Assembly: GCA_049515895.1 (NCBI GenBank)
Contig: JBEKTQ010000007.1
Span: 110,819-174,818, forward strand
DNA: 64,000 nucleotides
Direction of reading: 5' to 3'
From: Candidatus Bathyarchaeia archaeon
GTDB lineage: Archaea > Thermoproteota > Bathyarchaeia > Bathyarchaeales > Bathycorpusculaceae
Shown here: positions 27,663 through 57,059 of the stretch, in pieces
How the letters are laid out: the number at the start of each line of letters is the position of its first letter
Numbering within the stretch: position 1 is the stretch's first letter
Translations under genes and position numbers: made by a program
The notes under the pieces: generated by a model
What the model was told of the DNA's origin: nothing
The model's input: only the letters and a program-made list of their open reading frames with translations
Databases searched by the model: none

Positions 27663-27688
27663 TTTAAACATTGTGACTAATTTGTTAC
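27663..27688 (-). promoter_or_regulatory. operator + TATA of lysW operon (GTAACAAATTAGTCACAATGTTTAAA)
   Basis: 22/26 identical to 57034-57059 upstream of argG; imperfect palindrome TTGTRAC-N6-GTYACAA. Confidence 0.7.
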
Positions 27689-27852
27689 AACTTGAACTAC
27701 TAATGTTCCATTTGGTGCACCCGCCAAAAACGCTGAAAGTCACAAGAACATTCAACAAACGAGAAAAAATGACGAAAAACGTACCATGGACCAGCATCCA
27801 CAAGGGAAAACGTTAAATTTTCCACAAAGTAATAACCAATCGGCGGCAACAG

Positions 27853-28263
27853 ATGGACGAAAAAGACAAAGAAATACTCAAGCTTCTAAAAGACGACGCA
27901 AGAGCAGGCTACGGAGACATCGGAGCAAAAATCGGGCTTTCAGAAGGCGCAGTCCGAAAAAGAATCAAAACGTTAACCGACGAAGGAATAATACGAAAAT
28001 TCACCGTTAAGATCAGCCTCACGGAAGGTGCTCAAGCCATAACTTTACTTACAGCAAACACCGCCTGCCCAACGCAGGAAGTGTCAAAGAAGATCCAGGC
28101 GATCCCGAACGTTGAAACAACTTACGAGGTCAGCGGCGAATACGACATTGTCGCAGTCATCGGCGGCATGAACATGACTGAAGTAAACGAATGCATCGAA
28201 AAAATCCGCATGGTTGAAGGAATAGTCAAAACCAACACAATGATCGTTCTCCGCAGTTCCTGA
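27853..28263 (+). CDS. Lrp/AsnC family transcriptional regulator (LysM-like)
   Basis: MDEKDKEIL..L..DAR..Y..IG..IGLSEGAVRKRIK HTH; SGEYD RAM domain; divergent from lysW. Confidence 0.9.
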   Translation: MDEKDKEILKLLKDDARAGYGDIGAKIGLSEGAVRKRIKTLTDEGIIRKFTVKISLTEGAQAITLLTANTACPTQEVSKKIQAIPNVETTYEVSGEYDIVAVIGGMNMTEVNECIEKIRMVEGIVKTNTMIVLRSS

Positions 28264-28406
28264 TGCGGCTAACTCCGTGATTGCGGGCGGCCGAAAATAG
28301 TTTTCCCCTCGGATTCGTAGGTGTGTTGAACAGACAGGAAGTTGAAGGCAGAATTAATAATGTTTATTAATATTCCAGATACATGCTTTTGTTGGAGCTG
28401 TAGAAA

Positions 28407-29051
28407 ATGAATGAAAAGCTGCAAGAAAGCGCTCAGTACCTGAAGTGCTTCAACAACATGGAGATTGAAGCTTTCCGGGTTTATGAAGCGCTATCTAAGA
28501 AGATCAACCAGCCTGAAAGCAGTTTTGTTTTGGGGTTAGGCTATGACAGCCTTAAATGCTCAAAAATCCTTCAAGGGATACTCAGCCATCTTGACCTCTC
28601 TCAGATCGAAGGCTTAGAATGCAAAAAAGAAATTGCGGAGTTAGCAGCCGAAATTTCGAGGTTTACCAAAGTATTATCTACCATTAACAACTTGAGTCCC
28701 CTGCTTAGCTGCGAAATAATGAGTGAACTAATCAACATGGAGGACCTCTTGAACGAGACCTATACGAATTACCTGCAGGGTTCAGCCACCAAGTTTGTCG
28801 CGGACGAGTTTTCAGCGTTGATCCCCCAAAGCTCAAACAACTTTAAGCGAATCTTCGATTCGTTCGTTGAAGAAAAAGAAAGACACCGCCAAACCCTCAT
28901 CGAAGTTATCTACAGCCTAGAATCCAAAGAAGCCGAAAAAATCCGGCATGTAACACCAGTTGTCAAATACCAAAACCCCGACTCATGGTACCACGAATCA
29001 ACAATCCACGCCTTCACAAGGATCCCAATAAGGGCCAAAAACCAGCCTTAA
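28407..29051 (+). CDS. hypothetical protein, ferritin-like helical pattern
   Basis: E.EA...Y..L, DS.K and EE.ERH-like segments; 214-aa ORF. Confidence 0.5.
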   Translation: MNEKLQESAQYLKCFNNMEIEAFRVYEALSKKINQPESSFVLGLGYDSLKCSKILQGILSHLDLSQIEGLECKKEIAELAAEISRFTKVLSTINNLSPLLSCEIMSELINMEDLLNETYTNYLQGSATKFVADEFSALIPQSSNNFKRIFDSFVEEKERHRQTLIEVIYSLESKEAEKIRHVTPVVKYQNPDSWYHESTIHAFTRIPIRAKNQP

Positions 29052-29303
29052 TCCAAGTCAACTCAAGATCAGTTTCTCCCTGTTTCTTTAGTGGCAGGCA
29101 AAATCTAGCTTTCAACGCGTGTTTCTGTAATCGCTGGAAAGGAAATTCAATCCTACCTCTATTTCTCTGCCAAAACTAACTTTCATTGCTAACATTTTTG
29201 ACAATCGCTATTCGTTTTCACTTTCACCTACCCCTCCACTCCCTTGCACGGCAGTTTCTCAGTTCGCCTTTTAACCAACCCCAAACGATAAGCCTGACTC
29301 AAG

Positions 29304-29549
29304 GTGGTTCACATCAAAAAGAAAACAGCACTCTTAACCGAGCAAGAAGACTTCCAGCTTGACTTGACACTTCATGACGTTCCAGCTTCTCTGATCAGCG
29401 AGTTTGCAGAGAAAATCGTAGGGCCTTACTACAACGGCAATTTGAACCTTGCCATACAAGACCTGATAGGAAAAATCCTGTCAGAGCAAGAATTTGTACA
29501 TTCACACATAACGCATGTCAAAAATCCGGTCGCGCACAAAAACAAGTAA
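29304..29549 (+). CDS. hypothetical protein
   Basis: 81-aa ORF in otherwise empty region. Confidence 0.5.
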   Translation: MVHIKKKTALLTEQEDFQLDLTLHDVPASLISEFAEKIVGPYYNGNLNLAIQDLIGKILSEQEFVHSHITHVKNPVAHKNK

Positions 29550-29599
29550 ACTCAACAACTGACTATTATTTTCGTGGCTAATCGCTACTCAAAACTATT

Positions 29600-30316
29600 T
29601 TATTCCAATCTTTTCCGCAGAATTTTCTCGACACCGCTTGTTTTTCCGATGTAGACAATATCTGTTAAGTTGACAAAAAAGCCTGTTTCCACAACTCCCG
29701 GAATCATTTTTATCTTAACTTCCAATTCACCCGGATTGGCGATTTCGCCGAAATAGCAATCTAAAATGGCATTACCGTTGTCTGTTATTGTCGGGCCTAG
29801 TTTGCCTTTTCCCTCACGCAGCACAGGATGACCGCCAGCAGCAACGATTTTTCGTTTAACCAGTGAAATAGCGAACGGCAAAATCTCAACGGGTACACCT
29901 TGATCTTTTTCGCCCAGCAACTTGACTTTTTTGTTCTCGTCAGCAATAATGATGTTTAGTTTTGAGGCTGCTGCAACAATCTTTTCCCTCGCCAAAGCTG
30001 CTCCCATGCCCTTGATTAAATACAATTCAGGGGTAACCTGGTCTGCCCCATCAATGGTTACGTCAACTTCTGAGTGCTCATCCAAAGTTGTGATCGGAAT
30101 TCTGCGTTCGACCGCTAGCAGGAAAGCTTGATATGAAGTGGGAATACCCATAATGTGCAGGTTTTCACGTTTCGCTCTTTCTCCAAGGGCTTCGACGGCA
30201 AACGCGGCTGTGCTTCCACTGCCTAAACCTACAATAAATCCATCTTTGACATGATTTACCGCGGCCAACGCTGCATTCCGCTTTGCCTCTTGAATTGGAT
30301 CAAGGTTAGCTTTCAA
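29600..30316 (-). CDS. rpiA: ribose-5-phosphate isomerase A
   Basis: GLGSGST, DGAD, KGMGAAL.REK, PGVVETG. Confidence 0.95.
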   Translation of the reverse strand: MKANLDPIQEAKRNAALAAVNHVKDGFIVGLGSGSTAAFAVEALGERAKRENLHIMGIPTSYQAFLLAVERRIPITTLDEHSEVDVTIDGADQVTPELYLIKGMGAALAREKIVAAASKLNIIIADENKKVKLLGEKDQGVPVEILPFAISLVKRKIVAAGGHPVLREGKGKLGPTITDNGNAILDCYFGEIANPGELEVKIKMIPGVVETGFFVNLTDIVYIGKTSGVEKILRKRLE

Positions 30317-31055
30317 TTTCCATCTGCCCCAGCTTATCTAGAACCTTCTCAACTTCACTTCGAATCGACTCAATCCTTTTCTCAGCCTCAGTTTTAGCAT
30401 CAGGTTTCTCTTCAGATGGCTTACGTTTCCGCTTCTGCTTTTCCTCGCCAGCGGTTTCTTCCTCTTCCTCCGCCTCATCAATTTTCTCCATTTGCGAAGC
30501 AGGCGCCGTTGTGGGCATTTTTACAGGTATCTCTTTTATCGGTTTGACGTCGATTCTGGTTCTCAACTCCTCAACCTTAGACGTCAATTCCGTAAAGCGC
30601 TCGCTGAAAAGCTTCATCAAATCTTCCTGCATATCTTCAAGGTCATGTAGCGCAACTATCGATTCATCTTTTGAAATGGATTCCTTAATTGACATCATTC
30701 TTGCTGTGTATGTTCCAGCAAGCTTCTCGCGTTCTTGCTCGTTAATTTTACCTTCAGCTTGAGCTTCATAAAGACGGCGAATCGCGTCGCTTAAAATTTC
30801 CCGCTCCAAATCCAGCATCCGCAACTCATTTTTGGCGGTGGAAGCTGTAGATGCCTGAACACTCTTGGAGATTTTGAACGGTGAAGCTGAATAATCAAGG
30901 TCCGAATCGCTCGCCAATGTTTGGGTCCGCTGTGGTTTTTTCTTCGGCGGAGTCTTGTTGCTGAGGCGTCTCATGGCGTAAATGACTACTCCGCATGCGA
31001 AAATTATCACTACCGCAACTGCAGTGACCCATAATGGATCGTCATACCAAGCCAT
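30306..31055 (-). CDS. membrane-anchored coiled-coil hypothetical protein
   Basis: N-terminal hydrophobic helix, long charged helical body. Confidence 0.7.
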   Translation of the reverse strand: MAWYDDPLWVTAVAVVIIFACGVVIYAMRRLSNKTPPKKKPQRTQTLASDSDLDYSASPFKISKSVQASTASTAKNELRMLDLEREILSDAIRRLYEAQAEGKINEQEREKLAGTYTARMMSIKESISKDESIVALHDLEDMQEDLMKLFSERFTELTSKVEELRTRIDVKPIKEIPVKMPTTAPASQMEKIDEAEEEEETAGEEKQKRKRKPSEEKPDAKTEAEKRIESIRSEVEKVLDKLGQMEIES

Positions 31056-31154
31056 GCCTAGCTGTCCTCGGTATCTTGATTATGTACCATTAATATATAA
31101 ATTATACAAATCTTAGAGGATTTTCAGGATTGGGAGCCAAGAAACTTGTTGTTT

Positions 31155-31985
31155 TCACTTTTGTCTGTCTAATGTTTTAAGCATGCCTCCTGACTGATAC
31201 CCTCCTAAATCAACGGTTACGTACTTAAAACCAAGCCTTTTCAAGGATTCACACACGGTGTCCAAAACATTGACGTTGCAGAAAACAAGTCGCTCCGTTT
31301 TTCCCACTTCTATTCTGGCTAAGCCGCTGTGGTCTCTCACCCGAACTTGCTTAGCACCAGTTATCGCTTTCACGGCTTGCTCCGCTTTGTCAATTCGGGT
31401 TAACTTTTCGGCCGTGATTCTCTCGTTGAACGGTATCCTCGACGCCAAACACGCTAAAGCAAGCTTTCCATGGACGCTGAGCCCCATTTCTTTTGCCACT
31501 TGCCGAATTTCGTCCTTTGTAAACTTGTTGAGCATCCACGGACTGTACACGTTTTTTGTTTCTTTAACGGCTTGGAAGCCTGGCCTGTGATCATTCAAAT
31601 CGGAGAAGTTTGTGCCTTCAAAAACAGCTTCGAATTCGATTTCATGTGCAAAGTCGCTTAGGTTTTTGAGAAGTGCTTTTTTGCAGTAGTAGCAGCGGTT
31701 TTCTGGGTTTCGGCTAAAATCCTCGTTTGATAACTCGTCAGTTTCAATTATGAATAGTTTGATGCCTATTTCCTTGGCTACTCTCTTGGCATCCTCTAGT
31801 TCTTCAGAGGTGTAAGTGGGCGACTGAGCGATAACAGCCACCGCTTTCTCGCCCAGAACCTCGCGGCTTATCGCCGCTAGAGTTGAGCTGTCTACACCTC
31901 CGGAGAAAGCGATTACTGCTCCGTTTTTCCCAGTTTCTCTGATGAAATGTCGAAGCTGCTCAAGTTTGTGGCTTAACTCTTCCAT
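31155..31985 (-). CDS. larE: ATP-dependent sacrificial sulfur transferase
   Basis: AFSGGVDSS PP-loop, RCYYCK, RPG, CLASRIP, RVRDH. Confidence 0.92.
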   Translation of the reverse strand: MEELSHKLEQLRHFIRETGKNGAVIAFSGGVDSSTLAAISREVLGEKAVAVIAQSPTYTSEELEDAKRVAKEIGIKLFIIETDELSNEDFSRNPENRCYYCKKALLKNLSDFAHEIEFEAVFEGTNFSDLNDHRPGFQAVKETKNVYSPWMLNKFTKDEIRQVAKEMGLSVHGKLALACLASRIPFNERITAEKLTRIDKAEQAVKAITGAKQVRVRDHSGLARIEVGKTERLVFCNVNVLDTVCESLKRLGFKYVTVDLGGYQSGGMLKTLDRQK

Positions 31986-31994
31986 GCCGATTAC

Positions 31995-33245
31995 CTATTT
32001 TGAATAAAAAAGTTCTCTTGCACGTGAAACCGCCATTTCCGAGAGTTCTCTGAGGGGCTTGTTAGTTTTTTCCGCGAGCCTTTTAAGGTCATCGTACTCG
32101 GGTTTTATGCGGATAATGCTTCCATCAGTGTTCTTGGCGATTTTGACTTTCACAAGTTCCTTTGTTCCGCCAACGAGCAAGTCGACTGAGGATAGTTCCC
32201 GATTTATGATGTGCCTTTCACACGGGTAAACCCTGACGCCTAGCGTTCCAGTCTCTTCAATCAGCACGCGGGAAAGACGTTTGGCATCTTTTTGGTCAGC
32301 AACAACCTTGACTATTTGCCCCGGCCTGTTCTTTTTAGTGAACATAGGAATAATGCTAACGTCCTTTGCCCCTTCGGCAAAAAGCCTGTCAACAGCATGC
32401 CCCACGATTTCTCCTGAAACGTCATCAATGTTGGTTTCCAACAATGCAATCTGATCCGTCATCAAACAGTTCTCTAAAGGCTTACCTACCACTATTCGAA
32501 GAATGTTGGGGATTTCAGCAAAATCTTTACCGCCTGCGCCGTAACCAACTTCCAAAGGAGCCATTTCAGGGTAAAAACGGCTAACTGCTTCGGCCAAATT
32601 GACTATTATTGATGCACCAGTAGGTGTAGCTAATTCAGACTCGACAGGTCCCCCTTTGATCGGAAAATTTCTTGACTGAAAAATAGCCAACGCCGCGGGC
32701 GAGGGGCTTGAGACTATACCATGTGAGAACTGAAACGTTCCTCCCCCCACAGATACGGGGGTCGAAACTATCTTCGCCGCAAAGAAGCCGAGGTCTTCCA
32801 AGGCAACAGCTGACCCAATAATTTCGGCAGCAGTGTCAACCAATCCGACCTCATGCAGATGCGCGTCCGCTAAGTTGTGTCCATGAAGCTTCGCCTCGGC
32901 GTCAACGAGCGTGTGGATGACATTTGAGGCAAACTGCCTTGATTTGGCGGAAAGATCTATCGTTTTCGCTGTTTTTTCGACTATCGCTATAAGTTGTTTG
33001 CCGTCTTTTCTGGATTTTCCTTCAGCTGTGACATCGACTTTGGTAGCTAAAAACCCTTTGCGAACAACTTGCCTTATGTCCACTGACACGTTCTTGTAAC
33101 CGTTTTCGGCCCTTTCTAAGCTCATTATTGCTGAAGTCACTCTTTCTTTGTTTGCGCCCAGATCCAGTAGCGCGCCTAGCACCATGTCTCCTGAAACACC
33201 AGCGACTTGGCAGTCAACGACAACTATTTTAGAAAACTCAGTCAT
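31995..33245 (-). CDS. larC: nickel pincer cofactor nickel-insertion protein
   Basis: DCQ.AGVSGDM, HLHEVG..D, TPTGA, LETNIDD, KKNRPG, EYDD. Confidence 0.92.
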   Translation of the reverse strand: MTEFSKIVVVDCQVAGVSGDMVLGALLDLGANKERVTSAIMSLERAENGYKNVSVDIRQVVRKGFLATKVDVTAEGKSRKDGKQLIAIVEKTAKTIDLSAKSRQFASNVIHTLVDAEAKLHGHNLADAHLHEVGLVDTAAEIIGSAVALEDLGFFAAKIVSTPVSVGGGTFQFSHGIVSSPSPAALAIFQSRNFPIKGGPVESELATPTGASIIVNLAEAVSRFYPEMAPLEVGYGAGGKDFAEIPNILRIVVGKPLENCLMTDQIALLETNIDDVSGEIVGHAVDRLFAEGAKDVSIIPMFTKKNRPGQIVKVVADQKDAKRLSRVLIEETGTLGVRVYPCERHIINRELSSVDLLVGGTKELVKVKIAKNTDGSIIRIKPEYDDLKRLAEKTNKPLRELSEMAVSRARELFYSK

Positions 33246-33323
33246 TATGTTTCGACCGCTTGTTAATATAAAAAAAGCCAAAAACGATATATTACTTGTG
33301 GTTTAATGGCAAGTGATTAAATC

Positions 33324-34109
33324 ATGAGTGCGTTGAAGGATATTTTGGAAAAAACTGCTAAAGGCGAGCTAACGATTGAGGAAGCAGAAAAACTTGTGCG
33401 TTTGCAAGCTGTCGCTGAGCTTGAAGGCGTAGCGAAGATAGATTTTAACAGAGAACAGAGAAAAGGCATTCCAGAAATAATCTTGGCGGAAAACAAAACG
33501 GTGTCGGATGTGATCGACATAACTCAGCGAATGATGCATGAAAGCGGACGAGTAATTGTCAGCAGGTGCAGCCAGCAACAGATTCAAGCCCTCAAAGATG
33601 CGTTTCCAAATGAAACCGTTTTTGAAGTAAATGACAAAGCAAGAATAGCAGTCGTAAAAACCAAGGATTATACCGTGAAAAGTACTGGAGGAAAAATTGG
33701 GATTTTGACGGCCGGTACTTCTGATATTCCTGTAGCTGAAGAGGCAAAGGTTATTGCGGAAGAGATGGGTTGTGCCGTTTACGCTTCGTATGATTTGGGT
33801 GTGGCTGGTATCCACAGGTTGCTTTCGCCGCTGAAGGACTTAATCTTAAAGGATGTTGACGTTATCATTGTTGTCGCAGGCAGAGAAGGTGCCCTTTGCT
33901 CCGTAGTCGCTGGGTTAGTTAGTGTTCCCGTGATTGCGGTTCCAACGTCAAACAGTTACGGTTTCGGCGAAAAAGGAGTAAGCACGCTAATGGCCATGCT
34001 GCAGTCATGCTCGTTAGGTTTGTCAGTTGTTAACATTGACGCCGGAGTTGCGGCGGGCGCTGCGGCAACGTTAATCGCTAATCGGGCCGCGAAATTCAGG
34101 GAAAAATAA
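33324..34109 (+). CDS. larB: nickel pincer cofactor carboxylase/hydrolase
   Basis: R..G.PE, AGTSDIPVAEE, DLGVAGIHR, VAGREGAL, PTS..YG, C..G..VVNID. Confidence 0.92.
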   Translation: MSALKDILEKTAKGELTIEEAEKLVRLQAVAELEGVAKIDFNREQRKGIPEIILAENKTVSDVIDITQRMMHESGRVIVSRCSQQQIQALKDAFPNETVFEVNDKARIAVVKTKDYTVKSTGGKIGILTAGTSDIPVAEEAKVIAEEMGCAVYASYDLGVAGIHRLLSPLKDLILKDVDVIIVVAGREGALCSVVAGLVSVPVIAVPTSNSYGFGEKGVSTLMAMLQSCSLGLSVVNIDAGVAAGAAATLIANRAAKFREK

Positions 34110-34185
34110 CCTTGATTATTTTTAAAATTGGAACTTTCAGCATAGGGGATTCGACCGAACAGGTTGTTTGTGAGTTTAGATAGAA

Positions 34186-35427
34186 ATGGATGCATCAGAG
34201 AAACCTAGACTTGTAATCTTCGACGTTGAAGGAGTTCTTATTCCGAAAAACCGCTTCTTTTTTGAAGTTGGAAAGAAATTAGGCTTAACCAGATTGGTTA
34301 AACTTCTCTTTTTCGGTTTCCTCTATGAAGCAGGCATTCTTAAGCTTGAATCAGTACTGAAGCACATGTTCAATCAAGCGAAGGGGATCAAGCTTGAAGA
34401 TCTGACGAAAATTCTTGAAAAAATCTCTTCAACAAATTATCAGAAAGGCATCTTTTCGCAGATAAAAACGAGAAACTGCAAGATCGCTTTAATCAGCTCT
34501 GGTTTGCCAACTTTCGCTGTTAAAGAATTAGCCGATTCTGTCGGCGCAGACTACGCTTACGGGGTTGAGGTAGAAACGGAAGGAGGCAAATTGACGGGAA
34601 AAATCTGGGGCGATGCGATTCAGCCCGATGGAAAACTGAAGATTCTCGCGCAAGTATTAACCGCTGAGAACCTAAGACTAAGAGACTGTATCGTAGTTGC
34701 TGACGATAGAAATAACCGTTGCCTGTACCTGCCTGGAATGCTGAAGATCGGTTTTAACCCCGATTTTATAATACGGGTTAAAGCAGACAGAGTAGTAAAC
34801 GGCAGACTTTCCTCGGTCATCCCTATAATAGATGGCAAACCCCGAAAGCGTTCTTTTCCATCGGCAAACGATTTTGTTCGGGAAGACATTCATGCATCTG
34901 GAATTTTCATGCCGGTTATCGCTAGTTTAATCGGCGTTCCCGCGGTCGGCACGCTAATTTTTCTCATTGCGGCACTTTACACTGTTTCTGAGCTTTGGCG
35001 CCTGGAAGGAAAAAACCTGATTTTCATCTCAGCTATTACCCGGCATGCCGCGTCACAGTCAGAACTGCACGGGTTCGCGGCGGCGCCGCTGTATTTTGCT
35101 GGGGGCATCTTGTTTACTTTAGTTGTTTTTCCTCACCCTGCAAGTTACGCTGCAATCGCGATGTTCTGCCTTGGTGACAGCACAGCTTCACTTTTCGGAG
35201 CCTTCGCTTCATGGTCTTTGCCGTTCAACAAGGGGAAAACTTGGGGAGGCTCTTTTGCAGGGCTGTTTTTCGCTTTCTTAGCTGGTCTGATCTTCTTGCC
35301 GACACAGCCGCTTTTGGCTTTAGCAGGCGCAGCCATCGCGATGACCGTTGAGGTTCTACCGTTGCCTGTAAACGATAACGTGCTGATTCCAATAATCACG
35401 GGGGCAGCATTGACACTACTACTATAA
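34186..35427 (+). CDS. HAD (SerB-like) hydrolase fused to dolichol/phytol-kinase-like membrane domain
   Basis: N-term FDVEGVL, ISSG, K, ADDRNN; C-term REDIH, GDSTASLFG, KGKTWGGS, NDN. Confidence 0.7.
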   Translation: MDASEKPRLVIFDVEGVLIPKNRFFFEVGKKLGLTRLVKLLFFGFLYEAGILKLESVLKHMFNQAKGIKLEDLTKILEKISSTNYQKGIFSQIKTRNCKIALISSGLPTFAVKELADSVGADYAYGVEVETEGGKLTGKIWGDAIQPDGKLKILAQVLTAENLRLRDCIVVADDRNNRCLYLPGMLKIGFNPDFIIRVKADRVVNGRLSSVIPIIDGKPRKRSFPSANDFVREDIHASGIFMPVIASLIGVPAVGTLIFLIAALYTVSELWRLEGKNLIFISAITRHAASQSELHGFAAAPLYFAGGILFTLVVFPHPASYAAIAMFCLGDSTASLFGAFASWSLPFNKGKTWGGSFAGLFFAFLAGLIFLPTQPLLALAGAAIAMTVEVLPLPVNDNVLIPIITGAALTLLL

Positions 35428-35895: not shown

Positions 35896-35996
35896 ATTCT
35901 TACACTTAAATATGTATCTTGGGTGATTTAATGAAACTTTCTAATAACTCTTTTTTGGCATCGTTTGTCTCAAAACAGAAAGTAGTAGTCGGACGT

Positions 35997-36251: not shown

Positions 36252-36256
36252 TTCGC

Positions 36257-41150: not shown

Positions 41151-41174
41151 GAAGAAAAATATGCCTAAGTTAGA

Positions 41175-44228: not shown

Positions 44229-45692
44229 CTATTCGATGTAGGTTTTCTGAAGATTTCCAGAATAGTCAACATACACCGTTTTCAGCTCAGTAAATTCCCT
44301 CACGCCTTCAGGTCCGTCTTCCCGCGTGTTTCCCGAATGCTTGCTGCCTCCGAAAGGAAGGTGACATTCTGCGCCGATTGTCGGGCTGTTAACATAAGTT
44401 AATCCTGCCTGCAGCTTGTTGATTGCGACAAAAGCGTTCCTTATGCTGTTGGTGTATATGGAGGAGCTCAAGCCGTACTCAACGGAATTTGCAACCTCGA
44501 TTGCCTCAACAAGGTTTCTTGCGGCGAAAATTGAGATTACTGGTCCAAAGATTTCCTCCTGAGCGATCCGCATGTTAACAGCGCAGTCAGTAAAGACAGT
44601 TGGCTCAAAGAAGTACCCTTTCAAATCTCTAGGTACACTGCCCCCAATAAGGAGCTTTGCGCCCTCTTTTTTCCCGATTTCCACGTATCTGCCTACTTTT
44701 TCTTGAGCCGCTTTATTAACTAAAGGTCCAAGGTCAGTTTTAGGGTCTAAACCATTTCCAAGTCGAAGTCTGCGGACCCGCTCGACCAGCATAGCTTCAA
44801 AGGCTTCTTTTATTTTCTCATGAACAATCACTCTGGAGCTGGCCGTGCATCTCTGCCCCGAGGTTTCAAAGCCGCCCCAAAGAACCCCGTCAACAGCCAG
44901 CTTAAGATCTGCATCATCCATAACAACAATCGGGTTTTTCCCGCCCATCTCAAGATTTACCCTTTTAAGCCCAGCCTCCCTCAGGATGGAGGCGCCTGTG
45001 TCTTTGTGTCCTGTGAAACTGATGACTCGCACACGTTTATCGCTAATCAAAGCCATCCCGACGGTTTCGCCTGGACCAGTAACCAAATTAAGTACGCCCT
45101 TCGGGATACCTGCTTTTTCCACTATCTCGACAAGCTTAGTTGCGCAAAGCGGCGTGTCAGAAGCGGGCTTAAACACGGCGGTGTTCCCGCAGAGAAGCGA
45201 GTAAAAAACCTTTTTGGCAGGAATGGCTATGGGAAAATTCCATGGCGAAATCAACCCAGCCACGCCGATAGGCAGCCGAACCGTCATTGCAAACTTGCGT
45301 GGTTTTTCCGAGGGCGCCGTATACCCGAAGAGCCTTTTGCCTTCACCCGCTGCGTAAAACCCAACGTTGATTGCCTCTTGAACGTCGGCGCTTGCGTCAA
45401 GCAACGTCTTTCCCATCTCTCGGGTCATAATTCGAGATAGCTCATCCTTATTTTCGCTAAGCAACTGGGCAGCTTTAAAAATGTACTCGGCACGTTTCGG
45501 AGCTGGCGTATCCGACCAACCGTCAAAAGCTTCTTCAGCAAACTCAACTGCCTTCTGGGCGTCAAGAGCGTTTCCTTTCTGAAATTCCCCTATGACTTCG
45601 TCTGGGTCTGCAGGGTTAACCCTTGTGAAGGTTTCACCCGATTCTGAGTTTACCCATTCACCGTTGATGAACAATTGATATTTCGAAACCAT
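44229..45692 (-). CDS. NAD(P)-dependent aldehyde dehydrogenase
   Basis: PWNFP, KPA, FTG, EMGGKNP, GQRCTA, EEIFGP, PFGG. Confidence 0.93.
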   Translation of the reverse strand: MVSKYQLFINGEWVNSESGETFTRVNPADPDEVIGEFQKGNALDAQKAVEFAEEAFDGWSDTPAPKRAEYIFKAAQLLSENKDELSRIMTREMGKTLLDASADVQEAINVGFYAAGEGKRLFGYTAPSEKPRKFAMTVRLPIGVAGLISPWNFPIAIPAKKVFYSLLCGNTAVFKPASDTPLCATKLVEIVEKAGIPKGVLNLVTGPGETVGMALISDKRVRVISFTGHKDTGASILREAGLKRVNLEMGGKNPIVVMDDADLKLAVDGVLWGGFETSGQRCTASSRVIVHEKIKEAFEAMLVERVRRLRLGNGLDPKTDLGPLVNKAAQEKVGRYVEIGKKEGAKLLIGGSVPRDLKGYFFEPTVFTDCAVNMRIAQEEIFGPVISIFAARNLVEAIEVANSVEYGLSSSIYTNSIRNAFVAINKLQAGLTYVNSPTIGAECHLPFGGSKHSGNTREDGPEGVREFTELKTVYVDYSGNLQKTYIE

Positions 45693-46484: not shown

Positions 46485-46495
46485 CTCGTTATAGC

Positions 46496-47130: not shown

Positions 47131-47142
47131 CTGCAACCAATC

Positions 47143-47373: not shown

Positions 47374-47386
47374 AGCTGAAAGAACT

Positions 47387-49471: not shown

Positions 49472-49800
49472 AAAAGGTGACTTCCTGCTTCAGTATAAGC
49501 TTGGTGTCTTTTATTAACTGTTAGGGTTTGACTTGCTTGCGCCATTTATTTGCATAATTTTTAGATTGTTTTTAGTATTTTAAGCGAAATGATTCTTCAA
49601 TAATATTATTGGGATCGTTTGTGCGTTGAAGGGAGGATCCCTACCAATAAGAAAACAGCCCTAACTGACGCAACAAACGCGGATTGACATAACACTCTGG
49701 GCACCTTAAAATCAAAAGCCGAGACCGCTTGTTTATGAGTTTTCTTGTTGTTTCAGCAGGTTTATTGCTATTGAAGCCCACATTTCATTTGGGACTCATC

Positions 49801-50436
49801 ATGAATGTGGAGGAAGTCTTGTCAAAACTGCTAAGCTATTCCATGGAGCTTGACTTAGATTTGTCCAAGCCTGAGGACAGGTTCAAATGGTTTTTAGCTT
49901 CAGTGCTTTTTGCCAAGAGAATATCCGCGGAAACAGCCAAGGAGACCTACCGTTATTTCGAACAAGAAGACTTGACGAGCCCAGATGCAATTTTGCAAGC
50001 GGGTTGGGACCGCCTAGTCGAAGTTCTCGATTCCGGAGGCTACACCCGGTATGACTTTTCTACTGCGACAAACCTCTTGGGAATCGCAAAAACTTTGAAA
50101 GAACAGTACGGCAACTTGGAAAGGCTTCATTCAGAATCCAACAGCCCTGAAGATTTGGAAAGACGCTTGAAAGAGTTCAGAGGCGTTGGCCCCGTGTGCA
50201 TAAGCATATTCCTCCGGGAGCTGAGAGGAATATGGGAAAAGGCAAAACCTGAACCTTCGCCGGCGACTGTTGCAACAGCACAAAAAATTGGTCTAAGAGC
50301 AGAATTCGTTGGGAGATATGAGTCTCAGCTGGTTCGGTTAAATCTTGAGTACTGCAAGAAAAATCGAAGCTCAGAATGCCCGCTTGGCAATAACTGCCCA
50401 GATAGAAAACCTCGTCAGTTAAGACCTTACAGGTAG
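49801..50436 (+). CDS. HhH-GPD-like DNA-binding/glycosylase-like protein
   Basis: FLASVLFAKRI, GGYTRYD, GVGP....FLRE helix-hairpin-helix, C-terminal Cys cluster. Confidence 0.7.
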   Translation: MNVEEVLSKLLSYSMELDLDLSKPEDRFKWFLASVLFAKRISAETAKETYRYFEQEDLTSPDAILQAGWDRLVEVLDSGGYTRYDFSTATNLLGIAKTLKEQYGNLERLHSESNSPEDLERRLKEFRGVGPVCISIFLRELRGIWEKAKPEPSPATVATAQKIGLRAEFVGRYESQLVRLNLEYCKKNRSSECPLGNNCPDRKPRQLRPYR

Positions 50437-50572
50437 CCACCGAATTCACTGAGCAATTGCATCCTGATGACCCAAAGCGTCATTTGCGAGAAGCTCTCAA
50501 GCGAAGCAAGATATTTTGCAGTTTCAGCCAAAGAATTCAATTTTGTCTGAAAAGCAAGATTGCGGTTATTCC

Positions 50573-51157
50573 TTATTTTTGCAGCTGGCAGGATCTTATG
50601 CATTCTACCAGTGACTTGAGGTTTTCCATCCCTTTGTCTAAGGTGACAAAGTTTTCGATTTCGCCTATTGCACTGCGTGGGATTAATACGACTACCTTGC
50701 TCAGGAATGGTCTATTGAACCCAAGTTCCATTGCAGCTTCGTTAGTTAAGGCGACCTGCATGCCCTTGACATGCCAGTCGCTGAAATTTACATCTAACCC
50801 TTCAACTTCTCCTACAACGAAGCCGCTTGGACTGACAACTTTTTTGCCTTCGACTTTGACGGTTTCTAACTGCATCTCTTTATCCGCTACGTCTTTGAGG
50901 CTTCCAATCGGCGCTTTAAGCGTTATTACATCGCCGACTACCTCGATTAACTCAGTTGGCAGGCAAATCATTATTCTGCGCATGAACGGCTTTTTCAAGT
51001 TGAGTTCTGCCGCCGCTTCATCGCCGAGTATTACGTAGAAGGCAGTGGCTTGCCACTTGTAGAAGTCAACATGCAGATCGTTCATTTCGCCCAGTATGTA
51101 GCCTTCCGCTCCAACAACTTTCCTTCCTTTTAACAGTACAGGATTCATCGCGCTCAC
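50573..51157 (-). CDS. tandem PRC-barrel domain protein
   Basis: Two internal repeats G.KVV...G...GEV.....D...W.V. Confidence 0.75.
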   Translation of the reverse strand: MSAMNPVLLKGRKVVGAEGYILGEMNDLHVDFYKWQATAFYVILGDEAAAELNLKKPFMRRIMICLPTELIEVVGDVITLKAPIGSLKDVADKEMQLETVKVEGKKVVSPSGFVVGEVEGLDVNFSDWHVKGMQVALTNEAAMELGFNRPFLSKVVVLIPRSAIGEIENFVTLDKGMENLKSLVECIRSCQLQK

Positions 51158-51579
51158 GTTCTCGGTTAATTCAACAGTTTCGAGAATAAATAACTTGCTA
51201 AATGCCAGCTCACAAGCGGGGAAAGGGTGATAAAAGTTTTTTTCCTCAAGTCTATAACCAAATAGCGATTAAGAAAAACATCAAACATTGGTTTTAGTTC
51301 AGCTATGATCTAAGGTTAATTGATGGCGATTCAATTAAAAGGCGGAGAAGAACGACAACAAGCATTTTTCAGTTGTTGTTGTTCTAAGTTTAGGTTGTAC
51401 AAGCGGCAAAGTGTTGAAGAGATAACCAGTGTTCAGTAGTAGCAGAAGAAGAAGTGTGCACACTGCCATTATCTTCTTCTTTTGACAAAATAAATTTCTA
51501 TGTTTTTTGTTCAACGCACTACTTTACTCTTTTTAAGGATTGAAACAAGCTATGAAGCTAGTTATCGATATATGGTTGT

Positions 51580-51786
51580 TCAACGGTTAGTTTGCCTGTC
51601 CAGCCTACGGAAGATATAGTTTGCTGCTAACCCAACCACCAAGTCAGCGATAAGAAAGTCAATTAAATTAAGAATCCTGAAGAACAGGAGGACCGCAAAC
51701 AGCACCACCAACACAATTGCCACGACTCCGATGCTTCGCTTTTTCCTTTGGATATTAGATGAAGCAGAACCGCTTGACCCGATCAT
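51580..51786 (-). CDS. small two-TM membrane protein
   Basis: 68-aa ORF with two hydrophobic segments. Confidence 0.6.
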   Translation of the reverse strand: MIGSSGSASSNIQRKKRSIGVVAIVLVVLFAVLLFFRILNLIDFLIADLVVGLAANYIFRRLDRQTNR

Positions 51787-52018
51787 TTAGCACACCACAC
51801 CTCACCAATCAATCAATAGCCTATAATCATTGCTGTTGCCAGCCGAAACTGGAAAAATGAAGTTCTTGTGCTTTGTTTTCTGTTGCTTTTTTCTCTTGGG
51901 ATTTGCGCCATTTACAGGTGAATCAAAAAACTTGGCTTCTAAGAACTATCGAAAACTAAGCGATCGCACCTAACTAATTTGGGTAATTCTTAAATAAGAA
52001 CCACCTGAAAAATTAATC

Positions 52019-52537
52019 ATGCTGGGAACCTGAATATTTAGAGACAGAGAACAGATTTGGCACCAAATTCAAGGAATAATTCAGAAATTCAGGGAAAAGG
52101 GAGCAACAAGCCCAGAAAAAGCATTGACCATTCAGGAACTGGGTTTGCCGCCTCGGTTCGAAGAAGCCATGCATCGAAGACTTGGACAAACAGGCATTTT
52201 CTTTGAAGTAAACGGCAAATACTACCTGAATGAAGAGCGGCTTAAACAAATCCAGGAACAACGTGCCAACCGGACTGGTGGCGGCGGCTATAACAGACAG
52301 GGTGCTCCAGGCTGGCTACGTTACGGCAGAGTATTACTCATGTTGCCGATTGGCATCATTATTGTCGGCTTTTTACTGTTTTACTTTTACGTTAGTAACG
52401 GAGCCGGTTACTTTCCAGGTGAAATCCTCCTCATCTTGCTCGTTGTCTCATTGGTGTTGTTTATAGTTCGAATGCTTTTCTGGCGAGCACGAAGGCAATA
52501 CAAACGCGAAGGCTGTATGCAGAACAAAACGCCATAA
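52019..52537 (+). pseudogene. membrane protein with in-frame TGA at codon 5 (or downstream alternative start)
   Basis: ATG 52019 CTG GGA ACC TGA then open frame IFRDRE...GATSPEKAL into the 52124-52537 ORF. Confidence 0.5.
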
Positions 52538-52592
52538 TTACTGTAAAGAAATGGGGCTCTAAGCCCCGAGTTTCATTCTTACGTTTTTGGCT

Positions 52593-54002
52593 CTAAATTT
52601 TGTCCAGGTTGAATGCTTCGTGAATGGCTCGGACAACTTCTTTCCCGTCTTTTTCTTTTACCACAAAAGAAATGTTCAGCTCCGACGAGCCCTGTGCAAT
52701 CATTCGGATGTTTATGCCTTTTCTTGCGACTGTTGTGAATATTTTTGAGGCTACGCCCAAAGTGCCCTTCATATTGGCGCCAACAACAGCTATTACTGCC
52801 ACGTCGTCTTCCGAAGAAATGTCGCTTACTAAGCCACCCCTATCAAGCAAGGCGATTTCAAGGCTGCTTATCGCCCTGCCTAAAACTCCTCGTCGAATAA
52901 CCATTGAAATGTTGGCTTCTGAGGCAGCGGTAGATATCATCATAACGTTAATGTTGTTTTTTCCGAGCACATCGAAAACTTTCGCGTAGCTTCCAGGTGC
53001 ACCAACCATTCCTGCGCCGCTGACGTTTAACATTGCAACTTCCCTTATCATTGCTACCGCTTTAACGACTTGTTTTGCGTTCGCATCAGGCTCTTCCGTA
53101 ATCAATGTGCCTTGGTTTTCCGGATGAAAAACACTGCGTATCCTCACTGGGACGTTTTCTTTTATGACAGGCTCTAGAGCTCTTGGATGCATGGCTTTTG
53201 CGCCAAAAATCGCCATTTCCGCAGCTTCTTGATAGCTTAATTGCGGTAGCATTTTGGCGGCTGGAACTATTTTGGGGTCGGTGGTCATAATGCCGTCTAC
53301 GTCAGTCCATATCCAGACTTCGTCAGCGCCTAATGCAACGCCTAAAATTGTTGCAGTGTAATCTGATCCACCCCGTCCAACTGTTGTCACTACTCCGTTT
53401 TGGTCCGCGGCAATGTAACCTGTAACAACTGGGACGACGCCTTTTTCAAGCAGTGGACTCAGCCTTTCTCGGATCAGGTGAGTGGTAAAGTTCATAAGTG
53501 GGTCTGCTTCCCCGAAGTTTGAGTCTGTTACGATACCTGCTTCTTTGCCTGTGAAACATTGAGTCTCCAGCTTGCGGTCTTTTATGGCTCCCCAAACAAT
53601 TGGTGCTGAAAGCCGCTCGCCGAACGATAGTACATAATCTTTTGACTTAGGCGTAAGCTCGCCAACATAGCATATGCCCGTTAACACCTTCTCGAGTTCA
53701 GCGATAGTTTTCTCTGTGATTTGAGTTACTTCTTTTTGAATCGCCTCGCTACTAATGGCCGATTTGATTGCCATCAAATGCTTCTCCGAAAGTTCCGTTG
53801 TGAAGGCTTGAATTTGTTTTTCATTGCTTCTCTTCGCTTGCTCTGCGACTTCAATCAGGCCGTTAGTTACTCCTGCTAAAGCTGATACAACAACGGCGAT
53901 TCTGCAGTTGTTCTTGGCGTTTTGCTTTATTATAGAACTTACATGGCGTATATTTTCGCCCGTTGCTACGCTGCTACCGCCGAACTTCATGACTACTTTC
54001 AT
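52593..54002 (-). CDS. ask: aspartate kinase (thr-operon isozyme)
   Basis: KFGGSS, SFGERLS, GRGGSDYTA, WTDVDG, two ACT domains (GSSELNIS). Confidence 0.93.
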   Translation of the reverse strand: MKVVMKFGGSSVATGENIRHVSSIIKQNAKNNCRIAVVVSALAGVTNGLIEVAEQAKRSNEKQIQAFTTELSEKHLMAIKSAISSEAIQKEVTQITEKTIAELEKVLTGICYVGELTPKSKDYVLSFGERLSAPIVWGAIKDRKLETQCFTGKEAGIVTDSNFGEADPLMNFTTHLIRERLSPLLEKGVVPVVTGYIAADQNGVVTTVGRGGSDYTATILGVALGADEVWIWTDVDGIMTTDPKIVPAAKMLPQLSYQEAAEMAIFGAKAMHPRALEPVIKENVPVRIRSVFHPENQGTLITEEPDANAKQVVKAVAMIREVAMLNVSGAGMVGAPGSYAKVFDVLGKNNINVMMISTAASEANISMVIRRGVLGRAISSLEIALLDRGGLVSDISSEDDVAVIAVVGANMKGTLGVASKIFTTVARKGINIRMIAQGSSELNISFVVKEKDGKEVVRAIHEAFNLDKI

Positions 54003-54004
54003 TT

Positions 54005-55048
54005 TCAGGACTCCGAGTTTTCAGATAGCATTCGATCTGCTAACTTATGTCTTATATCTAAGAGGTCTCTTAAAACTGCACTGGCAGTCTCCATACCACC
54101 AGCACCCTTACCGATAATTGTTTCCTCACCAGCATATTCCGTGTAAAAAGTCACAGCGTTAAGAACTCCGCTGACGCACAACGGGCTGTTTTTCGCTATT
54201 TCCATGGGTTTGACAGTTGACCCGTTGTGGTCAATTGACCCTAAGAGCTTAATTGTGTTTCCTCTCTTTGAAGCTTCATCAAGCGCTTCCAACGAAACCT
54301 TACGGATGCCCGTAATCTCGACATCCTTTAAGGTTATTTTCTTGTTCAATATCCAGTTTGCCAGAATGACAACTTTGCAGGCTGCGTCGAATCCGTCAAC
54401 ATCCATGGACGGCTCCCGCTCCGCGTAGCCCAGCTTCTGAGCGTTTGCCAGCGCCTCTTGGAAGGTAACACGGTTTTGAGCCATTTCAGTCAGTATGTAG
54501 TTTGTTGTTCCGTTCAGTATTCCTTTTATGGCTAAGATTTTGTCTCCGGCTAAACAGCGCTTAGCGAACTCAAGGACTGGTGTTCCACCGCCGACGGTTC
54601 CGCTGAATCGGAGGCAAACATTGTTGTATTCTGCTAGTTCTGTGAGGGCGGGCATTGCTAAGGCTAATGGTCCCTTGTTGGTTGTGACAACATGTTTTCC
54701 TGTTTGGAAGGCTTTTGTTATGTGCGACAGGGCTGGTTCAGCGTTTTTGATATTAACGGGCGTTACCTCAACAACCACTTCTGCCTCAACAGACTCGATA
54801 ACATCTGACACTGACATTCCAGGGTGACCAAACTCGGGGTCTTTAGAGATTGGAAATCCCCTTTGCCTAATCTCCCCCAATTTTTCGGGGCTTAAACCTC
54901 TTGGGTTTATGACGGCTCCGTCTATGTCAGCTATGGCGACGATTTTTGGGTTAAACCCGTAATCCTTAACTTTTTCTAGGGATCTGTTCGCAAGAATAGT
55001 TGTTACGCTTTTCCCAACTACTCCGAAGCCAACTAAGATTATCCTCAT
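54005..55048 (-). CDS. hom: homoserine dehydrogenase
   Basis: GFGVVG, HVVTTNKG, TVGGGTP, GILNGTTNYIL, GKGAGG.ETA. Confidence 0.95.
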   Translation of the reverse strand: MRIILVGFGVVGKSVTTILANRSLEKVKDYGFNPKIVAIADIDGAVINPRGLSPEKLGEIRQRGFPISKDPEFGHPGMSVSDVIESVEAEVVVEVTPVNIKNAEPALSHITKAFQTGKHVVTTNKGPLALAMPALTELAEYNNVCLRFSGTVGGGTPVLEFAKRCLAGDKILAIKGILNGTTNYILTEMAQNRVTFQEALANAQKLGYAEREPSMDVDGFDAACKVVILANWILNKKITLKDVEITGIRKVSLEALDEASKRGNTIKLLGSIDHNGSTVKPMEIAKNSPLCVSGVLNAVTFYTEYAGEETIIGKGAGGMETASAVLRDLLDIRHKLADRMLSENSES

Positions 55049-55055
55049 TTTTTGT

Positions 55056-56306
55056 TCACCTAGCCAGAATCACTTTTTGCTGTTTTAACCCCAGAGCATG
55101 CTCAATAGCCAACATATCAGCGTCGACTTCAACCGGTTTTTCGCATTGCTTTATCGCGGTGTCGGGGTCTTTTAATCCATGTCCAGTGGTAATACAGACA
55201 ACCCGTTCGTCTTTACCTATGACGCCACTTTTAACCAGCTTCTTTAACCCTGCGATTGACGAGGCACTTGCAGGCTCTACAAAGATCCCTTCAATTCTAG
55301 CCAACATTTTCTGTGCATCCAAGATTTCGTCGTCGGTAACGGTTTCGGCGGTGCCGTGGGATTCGTGGATGGCGTTAATGGCTTTTTTCCAGCTAACTGG
55401 AGCACCAATTCGGATGGCAGTGGCGACTGTTTCCGGATGTTCAACAGGAATGATTTTGTCGCTGTTGGTTTTGATTGCTTGTGCTATGGGCGCCGAACCA
55501 GTTGCTTGAATTCCGGTCATTTTTGGCAATTTTTTTATGAATCCAAGTTTGTAGAATTCAGTCAAGCCTTTCCAGACAGCACTTATGTTCCCAGCGTTGC
55601 CGACGGGTATGATAATTCTATCGGGGGCATCATTGTTCAGCTGCTCACAGATTTCGTAGCCCAATGATTTTTGTCCTTCAATACGGAACGGGTTAATTGA
55701 ATTAAGCAGGTAAATGTTCTTATGTTTCTCGGCCAACTTCAAGACGAATTCTAGGGATTGGTCGAAGTTCCCCCGTACTTGCAAGACTTTCGCGCCGTGA
55801 ATCATAGCCTGCGCCAATTTACCATAAGCAATCTTGCCCGACGGAATCAGAACAGTACACTTTAATCCTGCCCTTGCAGCGTAAGCCGCTAAACTTGCGC
55901 TAGTATTCCCAGTTGAAGCGCAAATTACGTGCCTGGCTCCAAGCTCGACGGCTTTTGTCACGCCGACTGTCATGCCCCGATCTTTGAAGCTGCCCGTTGG
56001 GTTCTCGCCTTCATTCTTGACGTATACTTCCTTCAGCCCTACTTCGTCGCCTAAGCGTGAAGAACGATGCAAGCCAGTCCCACCTTCATTAAGAGTAACA
56101 ACGTGCGCAGTTTCATGAATGGGCATGAAGTCGCGGTACCGCCAAACAGAAAGTGACTTTGTTTTCCAGTCGCTGCCTTTGAGAGTTTGAGCTAGCTCTT
56201 TAAAGTCAAATTTTATTTCTAGGATATCTCCACATTTCCTACAGAAGTAAACGATATCGTCAATGTCATATTTTGTTTTGCAGTTAATGCATTCTTGGTG
56301 TACCAT
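55056..56306 (-). CDS. thrC: threonine synthase
   Basis: NPTGSFKDRG, ASTGNT, PVGNAGN, EPASA, TGHGLKD. Confidence 0.95.
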   Translation of the reverse strand: MVHQECINCKTKYDIDDIVYFCRKCGDILEIKFDFKELAQTLKGSDWKTKSLSVWRYRDFMPIHETAHVVTLNEGGTGLHRSSRLGDEVGLKEVYVKNEGENPTGSFKDRGMTVGVTKAVELGARHVICASTGNTSASLAAYAARAGLKCTVLIPSGKIAYGKLAQAMIHGAKVLQVRGNFDQSLEFVLKLAEKHKNIYLLNSINPFRIEGQKSLGYEICEQLNNDAPDRIIIPVGNAGNISAVWKGLTEFYKLGFIKKLPKMTGIQATGSAPIAQAIKTNSDKIIPVEHPETVATAIRIGAPVSWKKAINAIHESHGTAETVTDDEILDAQKMLARIEGIFVEPASASSIAGLKKLVKSGVIGKDERVVCITTGHGLKDPDTAIKQCEKPVEVDADMLAIEHALGLKQQKVILAR

Positions 56307-56322
56307 GTTTTTAGCCTCTCCT

Positions 56323-56412
56323 TTAGATGAGCCCCTTAGCTAAGTGAGGCAATGAAGGCTGCTGCTGAACTATCTGTTTAGGCATTATTAATTTTGTCGT
56401 TTGCATTGCCAT
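56323..56412 (-). CDS. possible thrC leader ORF MAMQTTKLIMPKQIVQQQPSLPHLAKGLI
   Basis: Starts at TAATG overlap with upstream stop, ends at TAA directly before the thrC SD (AGGAGAGG). Confidence 0.3.
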   Translation of the reverse strand: MAMQTTKLIMPKQIVQQQPSLPHLAKGLI

Positions 56413-56990
56413 TAGCCCACCAGATTGGATAAAGTTTCATAAACTTTCAAGCTGTCTTTTTTCTCGATGACAATGATGGTTTCCGTCCAGCAAGAAATGA
56501 ACTCAACTATGTTCACGCTTTGCTCCGCCAAAAGTGTTGCTATGAAAGCGACAACTCCTGGAGTCGCCTCCAGCTCTTCAGGCGAGTGCACAACAATCAT
56601 TGTGCAATTGTCATGCTTCATAAGGACGTTTATGCGTTCAGGTAAATCGCTTCTGTCAAGCAGATAAACGAATTTATCGAGCAAATCCACTTTCATGCCA
56701 GTTTTCGAATTAACTTCTTTGCCAGTTATTATGACGGATTTACGATCATAAACCGCAATGCTGCTGCGCTTAAGAAGGTGAAGAACTTTTTCTTCCCTTT
56801 TCTGCTTGTGTTTCTGCAGTTCCTCCGAGTAACGGCGGAGAGCAGCTTTTATTGCGCTTGGATCTTTAGTTTTTAATTCTTTCTGTATTTGCCTTGCCAA
56901 CTCGCTGAGATTCACAATACCTTTTTCCAAGGCTTCAAGTAAGTACGGCTTATTTCTCAGATAATTCCTAACGCTTTGAGCTACACTCAT
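56412..56990 (-). CDS. HTH-like + ACT domain protein (putative amino-acid-sensing regulator)
   Basis: N-term NLSELARQI...AIKAALRRY helical motif; C-term TPGVVAFI...L....NIVEFISCWTET ACT motif. Confidence 0.7.
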   Translation of the reverse strand: MSVAQSVRNYLRNKPYLLEALEKGIVNLSELARQIQKELKTKDPSAIKAALRRYSEELQKHKQKREEKVLHLLKRSSIAVYDRKSVIITGKEVNSKTGMKVDLLDKFVYLLDRSDLPERINVLMKHDNCTMIVVHSPEELEATPGVVAFIATLLAEQSVNIVEFISCWTETIIVIEKKDSLKVYETLSNLVG

Positions 56991-57033
56991 GTTACTCCAA
57001 GATGTATCAAATGGGACATTTAAATTTTGTTAA

Positions 57034-57059
57034 GTAACAAAAAAGTCACAAGGTTTAAG
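57034..57059 (+). promoter_or_regulatory. operator + TATA of argG operon (GTAACAAAAAAGTCACAAGGTTTAAG)
   Basis: 22/26 identical to the lysW promoter element, same orientation relative to the gene. Confidence 0.7.

Follow-up and report, generated by a model that had tools for sequence, protein, structure and literature searches.

The stretch of DNA considered here, hereafter the window, comprises 64,000 nucleotides of contig JBEKTQ010000007.1 from a Candidatus Bathyarchaeia archaeon, the genome of which measures 3.18 Mb in 53 contigs, with 44% G+C and an estimated completeness of 100%. It contains the operon of the carrier protein LysW and the argGH-carAB operon, and the promoters of these two share a sequence element that is the subject of this report. 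Each promoter faces a divergent gene. The one opposite lysW encodes a LysM-like Lrp/AsnC protein, and that opposite argG a protein with a DUF7523 domain and a tandem pair of ACT domains. The relevant features are listed below.

21947-27603, minus strand: LysW operon, with lysW (27397-27603), the gene for a 394-residue LysX/ArgX-like ligase, and argC-, argB-, argD- and argE-like genes
27853-28263, plus strand: lysM-like Lrp/AsnC gene, divergent from lysW; Pfam HTH_AsnC and AsnC_trans_reg
56412-56990, minus strand: gene for the DUF7523 and tandem-ACT protein, 192 residues, divergent from argG and heading a thrC-hom-ask operon; Pfam DUF7523 and ACT_7
57101-64000, plus strand: argGH-carAB, with argG at 57101-58345, argH to 59855, carA at 59888-61045 and carB from 61046
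27663-27688, minus strand: site 1, the 26-mer GTAACAAATTAGTCACAATGTTTAAA, upstream of lysW
57034-57059, plus strand: site 2, the 26-mer GTAACAAAAAAGTCACAAGGTTTAAG, upstream of argG
27702-27714, minus strand: Box A of the lysW promoter, CAAATGGAACATT, unique to the two loci and a conserved island in the genus alignment
27671-27688, minus strand: Box B of the lysW promoter, GTAACAAATTAGTCACAA, two GT[AC]ACAA repeats 11 bp apart, present in 24/24 promoters of the genus
27663-27668, minus strand: predicted TATA box TTTAAA of the lysW operon, 2 bp past Box B and invariant in the genus alignment
57008-57020, plus strand: Box A of the argG/ACT-gene intergenic region, CAAATGGGACATT
57034-57051, plus strand: Box B of the argG promoter, GTAACAAAAAAGTCACAA, in 72/80 related loci
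57054-57059, plus strand: predicted TATA box TTTAAG of argGH-carAB, 42 nt upstream of the argG ATG (57101)

The end of carB lies 321 bp past the window, and no arginine gene follows it.

A Shared Element at the lysW and argG Promoters

In an earlier annotation made from the letters of the window, hereafter the sequence-only reading, two 26-mers located about 29 kb apart were reported to be identical at 22 of their 26 positions. The observation is correct (four mismatches and a separation of 29.3 kb), but it understates the likeness of the two promoters, which extends beyond the 26-mers over approximately 52 bp. At both loci the order is Box A (CAAATGGNACATT), a spacer of 13 bp, Box B (GTAACAAANNAGTCACAA), 2 bp, and the TATA box. 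On balance, the two 26-bp sites would appear to constitute the proximal half of a bipartite operator of the form Box A-13 bp-Box B-2 bp-TATA. The TTTAAA hexamer of the lysW promoter, for which the role of a TATA box is predicted from sequence, is positioned ∼60 nt upstream of the conserved lysW ATG (27603). When read on the opposite strand, Box A of the argG locus falls between the TATA box of the ACT gene (57018-57025) and its start codon (56990).

The element is highly specific to these two promoters. No match to the 26-mer pair arose in 100 dinucleotide shuffles of the window. Across the 3.18-Mb genome, the pattern GTAACAA-N4-GTCACAA occurs only at the lysW and argG sites, and the same is true of the Box A 13-mer. 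A position weight matrix (PWM) for Box B, derived from 89 distinct module sequences of relatives, scores the two sites at 33.2 and 28.9 bits with the next genomic match at 15.1, and in a scan with the Box A matrix the two loci likewise stand apart. An arrangement of the type GTCnnAAnn-TATA is found in none of 164 other upstream regions with a TTTAWA box (0/164), in which only A at positions -4 and -3 is enriched. The motif is thus not common at unrelated promoters, and an identification as a generic archaeal B recognition element (BRE) plus TATA box is ruled out by the genome-wide pattern, the gap in PWM scores and the scan of promoter composition. Taken together, these results support the view that the lysW and argG promoters carry a specific, non-generic cis element, as judged from sequence. 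The sequence-only reading had anticipated that a genome-wide PWM search would also return argF and arginine transporters. It did not: the scan revealed no third module in this genome, and argF is without a box. One candidate, C39:10068, was rejected on account of its weak score and the unrelated open reading frame downstream.

Two further details of that reading must be revised. The letters of the sites do fit the palindrome GTRAC-N6-GTYAC that it described, but the variation seen in relatives (GTNACA... and GTC[AG][CAT]AA) is not mirrored across the dyad, and a palindromic reading of Box B is therefore unsupported. Direct repeats spaced by 11 bp provide a better description of Box B. A looser palindrome, GTNAC-N6-GTNAC, was discarded as well; it has 46 matches genome-wide on both strands, two per locus at the lysW and argG sites. 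The extra half-site is indeed present, as AAAGTCACAAG at 27736-27746 on the plus strand, but it is species-specific and lies outside of the conserved module: it is retained in 0/23 other genomes of the genus, with a column conservation of 0.2-0.3.

Conservation, Relocated Genes and Motif Dialects

Promoters of relatives were retrieved by protein anchors rather than by the motif, and alignments were prepared for the argG/ACT and lysM/lysW spacers, with 80 further loci drawn from a collection of species representatives. Congeneric genomes encode ArgG proteins that are 79-92% identical to that of the window. The full module was found in 72/80 argG loci of related genomes and in 24/24 lysW loci of the genus. 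At the argG loci, mean pairwise identity reaches 0.89 in Box A, 0.92 in Box B and 0.95 in the TATA box; the corresponding value for the fourfold degenerate sites of the adjacent ACT gene is 0.38, and the silent sites are nearly saturated. In the lysM-lysW spacer, conservation is confined to islands, namely the lysM TATA region, an ACG-N5-CGT box (27770-27784), Box A, Box B with the TATA box, and two blocks in the 5'-untranslated region (UTR). Since no gene start diverges from Box A of the lysW promoter, its conservation is not explained by a neighboring core promoter. The lysW and argG copies of the module vary independently of one another, and hence gene conversion does not account for their likeness. 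Short conserved blocks were also noted in the presumed 5'-UTRs, TCATTTCC and AAAGTGACGAA for lysW (27609-27638, minus strand) and AAGGTAAGGG-AA for argG (57075-57095, plus strand).

At the family level, the set consisted of 151 genomes from 70 genera. The Box B-TATA pattern matches 20 of these genera, usually twice per genome, with zero or one match per genome for a reversed control pattern. The twentieth genus is doubtful, given that its two genomes show a TTCAAG match with one mismatch. The other 19 genera are exactly the 19 that possess a short-form orthologue of the ACT protein (at least 60% identity). In five of these genera other than that of the window, lysW and argG were both confirmed to carry the Box A/B pair. 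In most other genera, the two modules share a strand and are separated by 10-12 kb (for example, G061:C1:60335-72078). This spacing is consistent with a single supercluster, lysM<>lysW operon ... ask-hom-thrC-ACT<>argGH-carAB, in which only the positions of lysM and the ACT gene were checked; in the present genome, 29 kb separate the two halves, which are inverted. Three contigs with Bathyarchaeia-type ACT/argG loci (L091, L093 and L138) belong to metagenome-assembled genomes labeled Limnocylindrales, Chloroflexia and Methanocella, and probably represent binning contamination.

Genes that have moved provide a means to assign the two boxes. In five loci where argG does not adjoin the ACT gene, the ACT promoter retains Box A and its TATA box and has lost Box B. 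The relocated argG retains both boxes. In two loci, L114 and L129, the module lies far from the ACT gene and keeps a Box A-like element and Box B; in L129, the opposing TATA box has decayed. Some genomes contain a third site with an identical Box A-Box B spacing, which precedes a solo lysW paralogue of 72 residues. These moved and duplicated genes indicate that Box B belongs to the biosynthetic promoters. Box A, as judged from the alignments, is retained at these promoters and also at that of the ACT gene itself. The present genome has a second LysW-like gene (C13:84932-85105), which is without the module. It is a distant homologue (42% identity), solitary, with no pathway genes nearby.

Genera and families with a long form of the ACT protein (220-250 residues, 23-27% identical) also carry its gene divergent from argG, and their argG spacers display a different element, TTTTTGGTCA located ∼25 bp upstream of TGACCAAAAA-TATATAA. 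The same two-part TTTTTGGTCA/TGACCAAAAA motif precedes lysW in G052, G170 and G138 (two genera), where the neighboring gene is proC and not lysM. Given that the other motif is present at both argG and lysW, it appears that the two promoters switched dialect jointly, a change that tracks the ACT protein rather than LysM. The possibility that TGACCA-N-TGGTCA at argG of this other dialect is simply the Shine-Dalgarno sequence and start codon of the ACT gene was rejected, because the same element occurs before lysW, where there is no gene start.

Could the likeness of the two promoters reflect shared ancestry only, in other words a duplicated promoter cassette that was kept for its strength and has no dedicated regulator? 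The whole bidirectional cassette does look duplicated, including a degenerate TATA-like stretch at Box A of lysW, and the duplicated solo lysW took its promoter along. The same positions were kept in both copies over 19 genera, however, while flanks and silent sites diverged; the sequence of the module is absent from all other promoters of the genome; and in the sister group both promoters switched to another shared motif. These three observations together require a common trans-acting reader, and an origin by descent without regulation is considered highly improbable.

Candidate Regulators

Two proteins encoded beside the promoters had been proposed as binders of the element, namely the LysM-like Lrp and the ACT protein. 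The former is the only recognizable DNA-binding regulator adjoining either promoter. It scores 163.6 bits against the LysM model NF040947 (cut-off 180), and its closest solved structures are those of LrpA and FL11. By analogy with Sulfolobus LysM, which activates lysW, it might occupy Box A and Box B, possibly in the form of an octamer around which phased sites are wrapped, and thereby impose a lysine- or arginine-responsive co-regulation on lysW and argG. The Sulfolobus protein occupies a site immediately upstream of the lysW BRE, and amino acids including lysine and arginine act as its effectors (PMC3597687). The two systems are indeed alike in several respects, with a LysW-type operon (lysWXJK in Sulfolobus), an adjoining gene for a ligand-sensing regulator and an operator just upstream of the BRE/TATA region (PMC3597687), and the present genome has both a LysM orthologue and a box of the LysM type. 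In addition, AAATG-N3-CATTT in Box A displays the 5-3-5 geometry of feast/famine regulatory protein (FFRP) sites.

The sequence recognition predicted for this protein, however, leads elsewhere. When LysM is aligned to FL11, its contact residues are Ser 34, Glu 35, Gly 36, Ala 37 and Arg 39, a set that goes with TACGn-WWW-nCGTA according to the published contact pattern (PMC2715240). Sulfolobus LysM boxes are of the type GTWCG-N5-CGWAC (PMC3597687). In the lysM-lysW spacer, the conserved columns at 27770-27784 constitute a predicted LysM site of this kind, which is separate from the shared element:

27770-27784, minus strand: LysM/FFRP-type box GTACGTTTTTCGTCA (ACG-N5-CGT)

Thus GTACGTTTTTCGTCA fits the predicted TACGn-WWW-nCGTA, whereas Box A and Box B do not. 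Neither is the general FFRP dyad, abcde-WWW-e'd'c'b'a' (13-15 bp), matched by Box B with its 11-bp direct repeats or by Box A, the center of which is G-rich where FFRP sites need A/T. Moreover, only 2 bp separate the shared element from the TATA box, in contrast to the 11 bp between the Sulfolobus LysM box and the BRE downstream of it, and the shared element links lysW to argGH-carAB, which is not known for LysM.

The phyletic distribution points in the same direction. LysM orthologues with the same recognition helix (SEGAVRKRIK) are encoded in 26 genera of the family-level set, and Box B is found in only 19 of these; the element does not co-vary with LysM. Seven genera without Box B have a LysM with an identical recognition helix; there, and also in three divergent genera that do have Box B, lysM is next to dapA and the spacers contain TACG-N5-CGTA. 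Divergent lysM and dapA genes, accompanied by TACG-N5-CGTA and CCGAAATTC-TATA motifs, are found in many related genera, and in the present genome a LysM-type box, TACGATTTTAGTA, is located upstream of dapA (C10 ∼45500-45600). On the basis of these boxes and of the lysM-dapA divergence, Bathyarchaeia LysM looks to be primarily a regulator of lysine synthesis by the diaminopimelate (DAP) pathway. Given also that no lysM gene adjoins the solo lysW copies or the lysW promoters of the other dialect, control of the shared element by the LysM-like Lrp seems decidedly unlikely.

The ACT protein is the better candidate of the two, the Lrp having a box of its own and the ACT protein matching the element in its distribution, 19 genera to 19 for Box B and the short form. 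Its contact with DNA is putative. The gene is adjacent to and divergent from argG, with Box A in its own promoter, where it was retained after argG had moved. The same divergent arrangement is seen in other genera of this family and in five other families of the order. An AlphaFold2 model of the protein has a pLDDT (predicted local distance difference test) score of 96 for the whole chain and 95 for residues 1-78. The N-terminal DUF7523 domain is strongly basic, with a net charge of +9 (family mean, +6.8), and Arg 33 and Arg 53 are invariant; the ACT part is acidic.

A mechanism can be envisaged as follows. The ACT domains would bind an amino acid, for which arginine or a pathway intermediate are guesses, and the basic N-terminal domain would contact Box A and Box B, both being occupied by a ligand-bound oligomer. 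Occupancy of Box B would hinder TFB and TBP, and argG and lysW would be repressed. Repression of these two genes is favored by the position of Box B, 2 bp from the TATA box and overlapping that of the BRE. Occupancy of Box A would lead to autorepression of the regulator gene, as favored by the location of that box between the TATA box and start codon of the latter.

Several observations weigh against this interpretation. The C-terminal part of the protein resembles the regulatory β subunit of aspartate kinase, and, together with the thrC-hom-ask operon that the gene heads, this makes a role as a regulator of enzymes possible. The four-helix DUF7523 domain yielded a best Foldseek E-value of 2.7 and no DNA-binding fold, and profile searches with it produced no match to helix-turn-helix (HTH), ribbon-helix-helix (RHH) or other DNA-binding families. 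Distant members of the family, as examined in Bathyarchaeia genomes and on unassigned metagenome contigs, occur in unrelated neighborhoods; for three distant homologues, no link to arginine or threonine was seen in the two with long contigs, and the third contig was too short to judge. The co-variation of dialect and protein rests on essentially one switch and is, as a consequence, confounded with phylogeny, and a different factor could have undergone its change in the same ancestor. Finally, the choice of repression over activation is a guess from position alone.

An unlinked transcription factor, or a specialized TFB or TBP paralogue, might read the module, with the DUF7523-ACT protein serving as a metabolic regulatory subunit and a mere member of the regulon. 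The resemblance to the aspartate kinase β subunit, the shared orientation with thrC-hom-ask and the lack of detectable DNA-binding homology in the N-terminal domain would all suit such a role. Box A at the ACT promoter is equally compatible with a gene that is itself regulated, and Box B overlaps the position of the BRE. Yet across no fewer than six families the ACT gene stays divergent from argG, including cases with no thr genes downstream of it, and in two families an Lrp gene occupies its position. The correspondence between Box B and the short form of the protein, and the strongly basic N-terminal domain with its invariant arginines, likewise speak against it. An unlinked reader is regarded as unlikely, to a lesser degree than the LysM-like Lrp.

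If the DUF7523-ACT protein is indeed the regulator, the family, which comprises about 900 clusters at 50% identity, may represent a hitherto unrecognized group of archaeal transcription factors that sense amino acids and contact DNA by a new fold. Its Bathyarchaeia members would be the functional counterpart of ArgR, with control over LysW-dependent ornithine synthesis and argG-carAB exerted through a bipartite operator with at least two co-evolved dialects. This broader proposal is a tentative one and falls just short of what we would call probable. The literature yielded nothing on DUF7523 (PF24367), and COG2150 is mentioned only twice, in passing. The proposed architecture is reminiscent of transcription factors with ACT or RAM domains, such as Lrp/FFRP proteins with their RAM domain, NikR and TyrR, in which a small-molecule ACT-like module is fused to a DNA-binding module, as proposed here, and occupancy is ligand-dependent. 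The sensor here differs in being a tandem ACT pair of the aspartate kinase β type, and the putative DNA-binding part in being the four-helix DUF7523 domain, which shows no detectable kinship to HTH or RHH folds.

Ornithine Synthesis and the Proposed Arginine Regulon

The LysW cluster has the hallmarks of an amino-group carrier protein (LysW/AmCP) pathway, with the LysW carrier, an ATP-grasp ligase and argB-, argC-, argD- and argE-like enzymes. Its argB- and argC-like genes are present in single copy in a genome estimated to be 100% complete, which has no other argB or argC and encodes argF, argG, argH and carAB for the downstream steps. LysA and DapA score above their curated cut-offs, and the DAP route to lysine is thus present; no protein of the genome exceeds the curated cut-off for homocitrate synthase. 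From the single-copy argB/argC-like genes and the DAP pathway it follows that the LysW cluster makes ornithine. It is, as predicted from gene content, the sole route to ornithine, and the specificity of its ligase is likewise a prediction. The contention of the sequence-only reading that the cluster serves arginine synthesis is therefore upheld.

The ligase itself (26142-27326, minus strand; 394 residues) is an atypical RimK/LysX-like protein that scores 84 bits against the LysX model TIGR02144, the cut-off being 275. In a sample of 40 relatives, only this genus and one other family proved to possess it, and it may represent a separate, ArgX-like type of glutamate-LysW ligase. In LysW of this genus, the usual MKAKCPDC start is preceded by a conserved N-terminal extension, MIKPVNSN... 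(27570-27603, minus strand). Given the in-frame indels between species within the extension, the upstream ATG at 27603 is the likely start codon. The argF gene (C4:31149-32060) was considered as a member of the regulon and rejected, as it is monocistronic, lies on another contig and has no box. Its upstream region (C4 ∼32100-32160) contains ACATAAAGCTTATTATTAC, which is like the spacer between Box A and Box B at argG in relatives (ACATTTAAAGCTTGTTAAGTAAC), without Box B; this may be due to chance.

Because the cis element is conserved across at least 19 genera, the predicted co-regulation of the LysW cluster with the arginine genes argGH-carAB is well founded. That it would be independent of ArgR, as had been claimed, agrees with the absence of any match to ArgR (TIGR01529) at E ≤ 0.01 in this essentially complete assembly (estimated 100%), the controls being positive in 9/14 reference genomes. 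The bacterial ARG box is an 18-bp palindrome, TNTGAATWWWWATTCANW, often in tandem. Neither Box A nor Box B fits this consensus, in keeping with the earlier remark that the motif does not resemble an ARG box. In its general plan, the system is nonetheless similar to the ArgR/ARG-box regulon: one type of operator is shared by several arginine promoters (the ornithine branch, argG and carAB), the operator overlaps the core promoter, and the regulator would be subject to autoregulation. The differences are that an ArgR homologue is absent here, that the promoters are of the archaeal TATA/BRE type, and that argF lies outside of the regulon.

The specificity, conservation and phyletic co-variation of the element are matters of direct observation; for the identity of the binder, its ligand and the sign of regulation, we infer the scheme set out above. 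The interpretation that we consider somewhat probable is that of an arginine regulon of two promoters, those of the LysW operon and argGH-carAB, under one factor that is neither ArgR nor LysM and is most likely the DUF7523-tandem-ACT protein. The element would be a new type of operator for an archaeal arginine regulon, and the regulator family is credible but unproven.

Bathyarchaeia are abundant but uncultured. To our knowledge, the control of arginine synthesis in archaea is largely unknown beyond a few model organisms, and for Bathyarchaeia nothing on this topic was found in the literature. The locus described here offers a precisely delimited putative operator and, from a family to which no function has been assigned, a named candidate for the regulator. 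The regulon would encompass two promoters, with a third in genomes that have a solo lysW. The analysis further distinguishes the part played by LysM, whose TACG boxes lie at dapA and lysM, from that of the new element, and the two operator dialects, each paired with one form of the ACT protein, would constitute a ready-made specificity swap.

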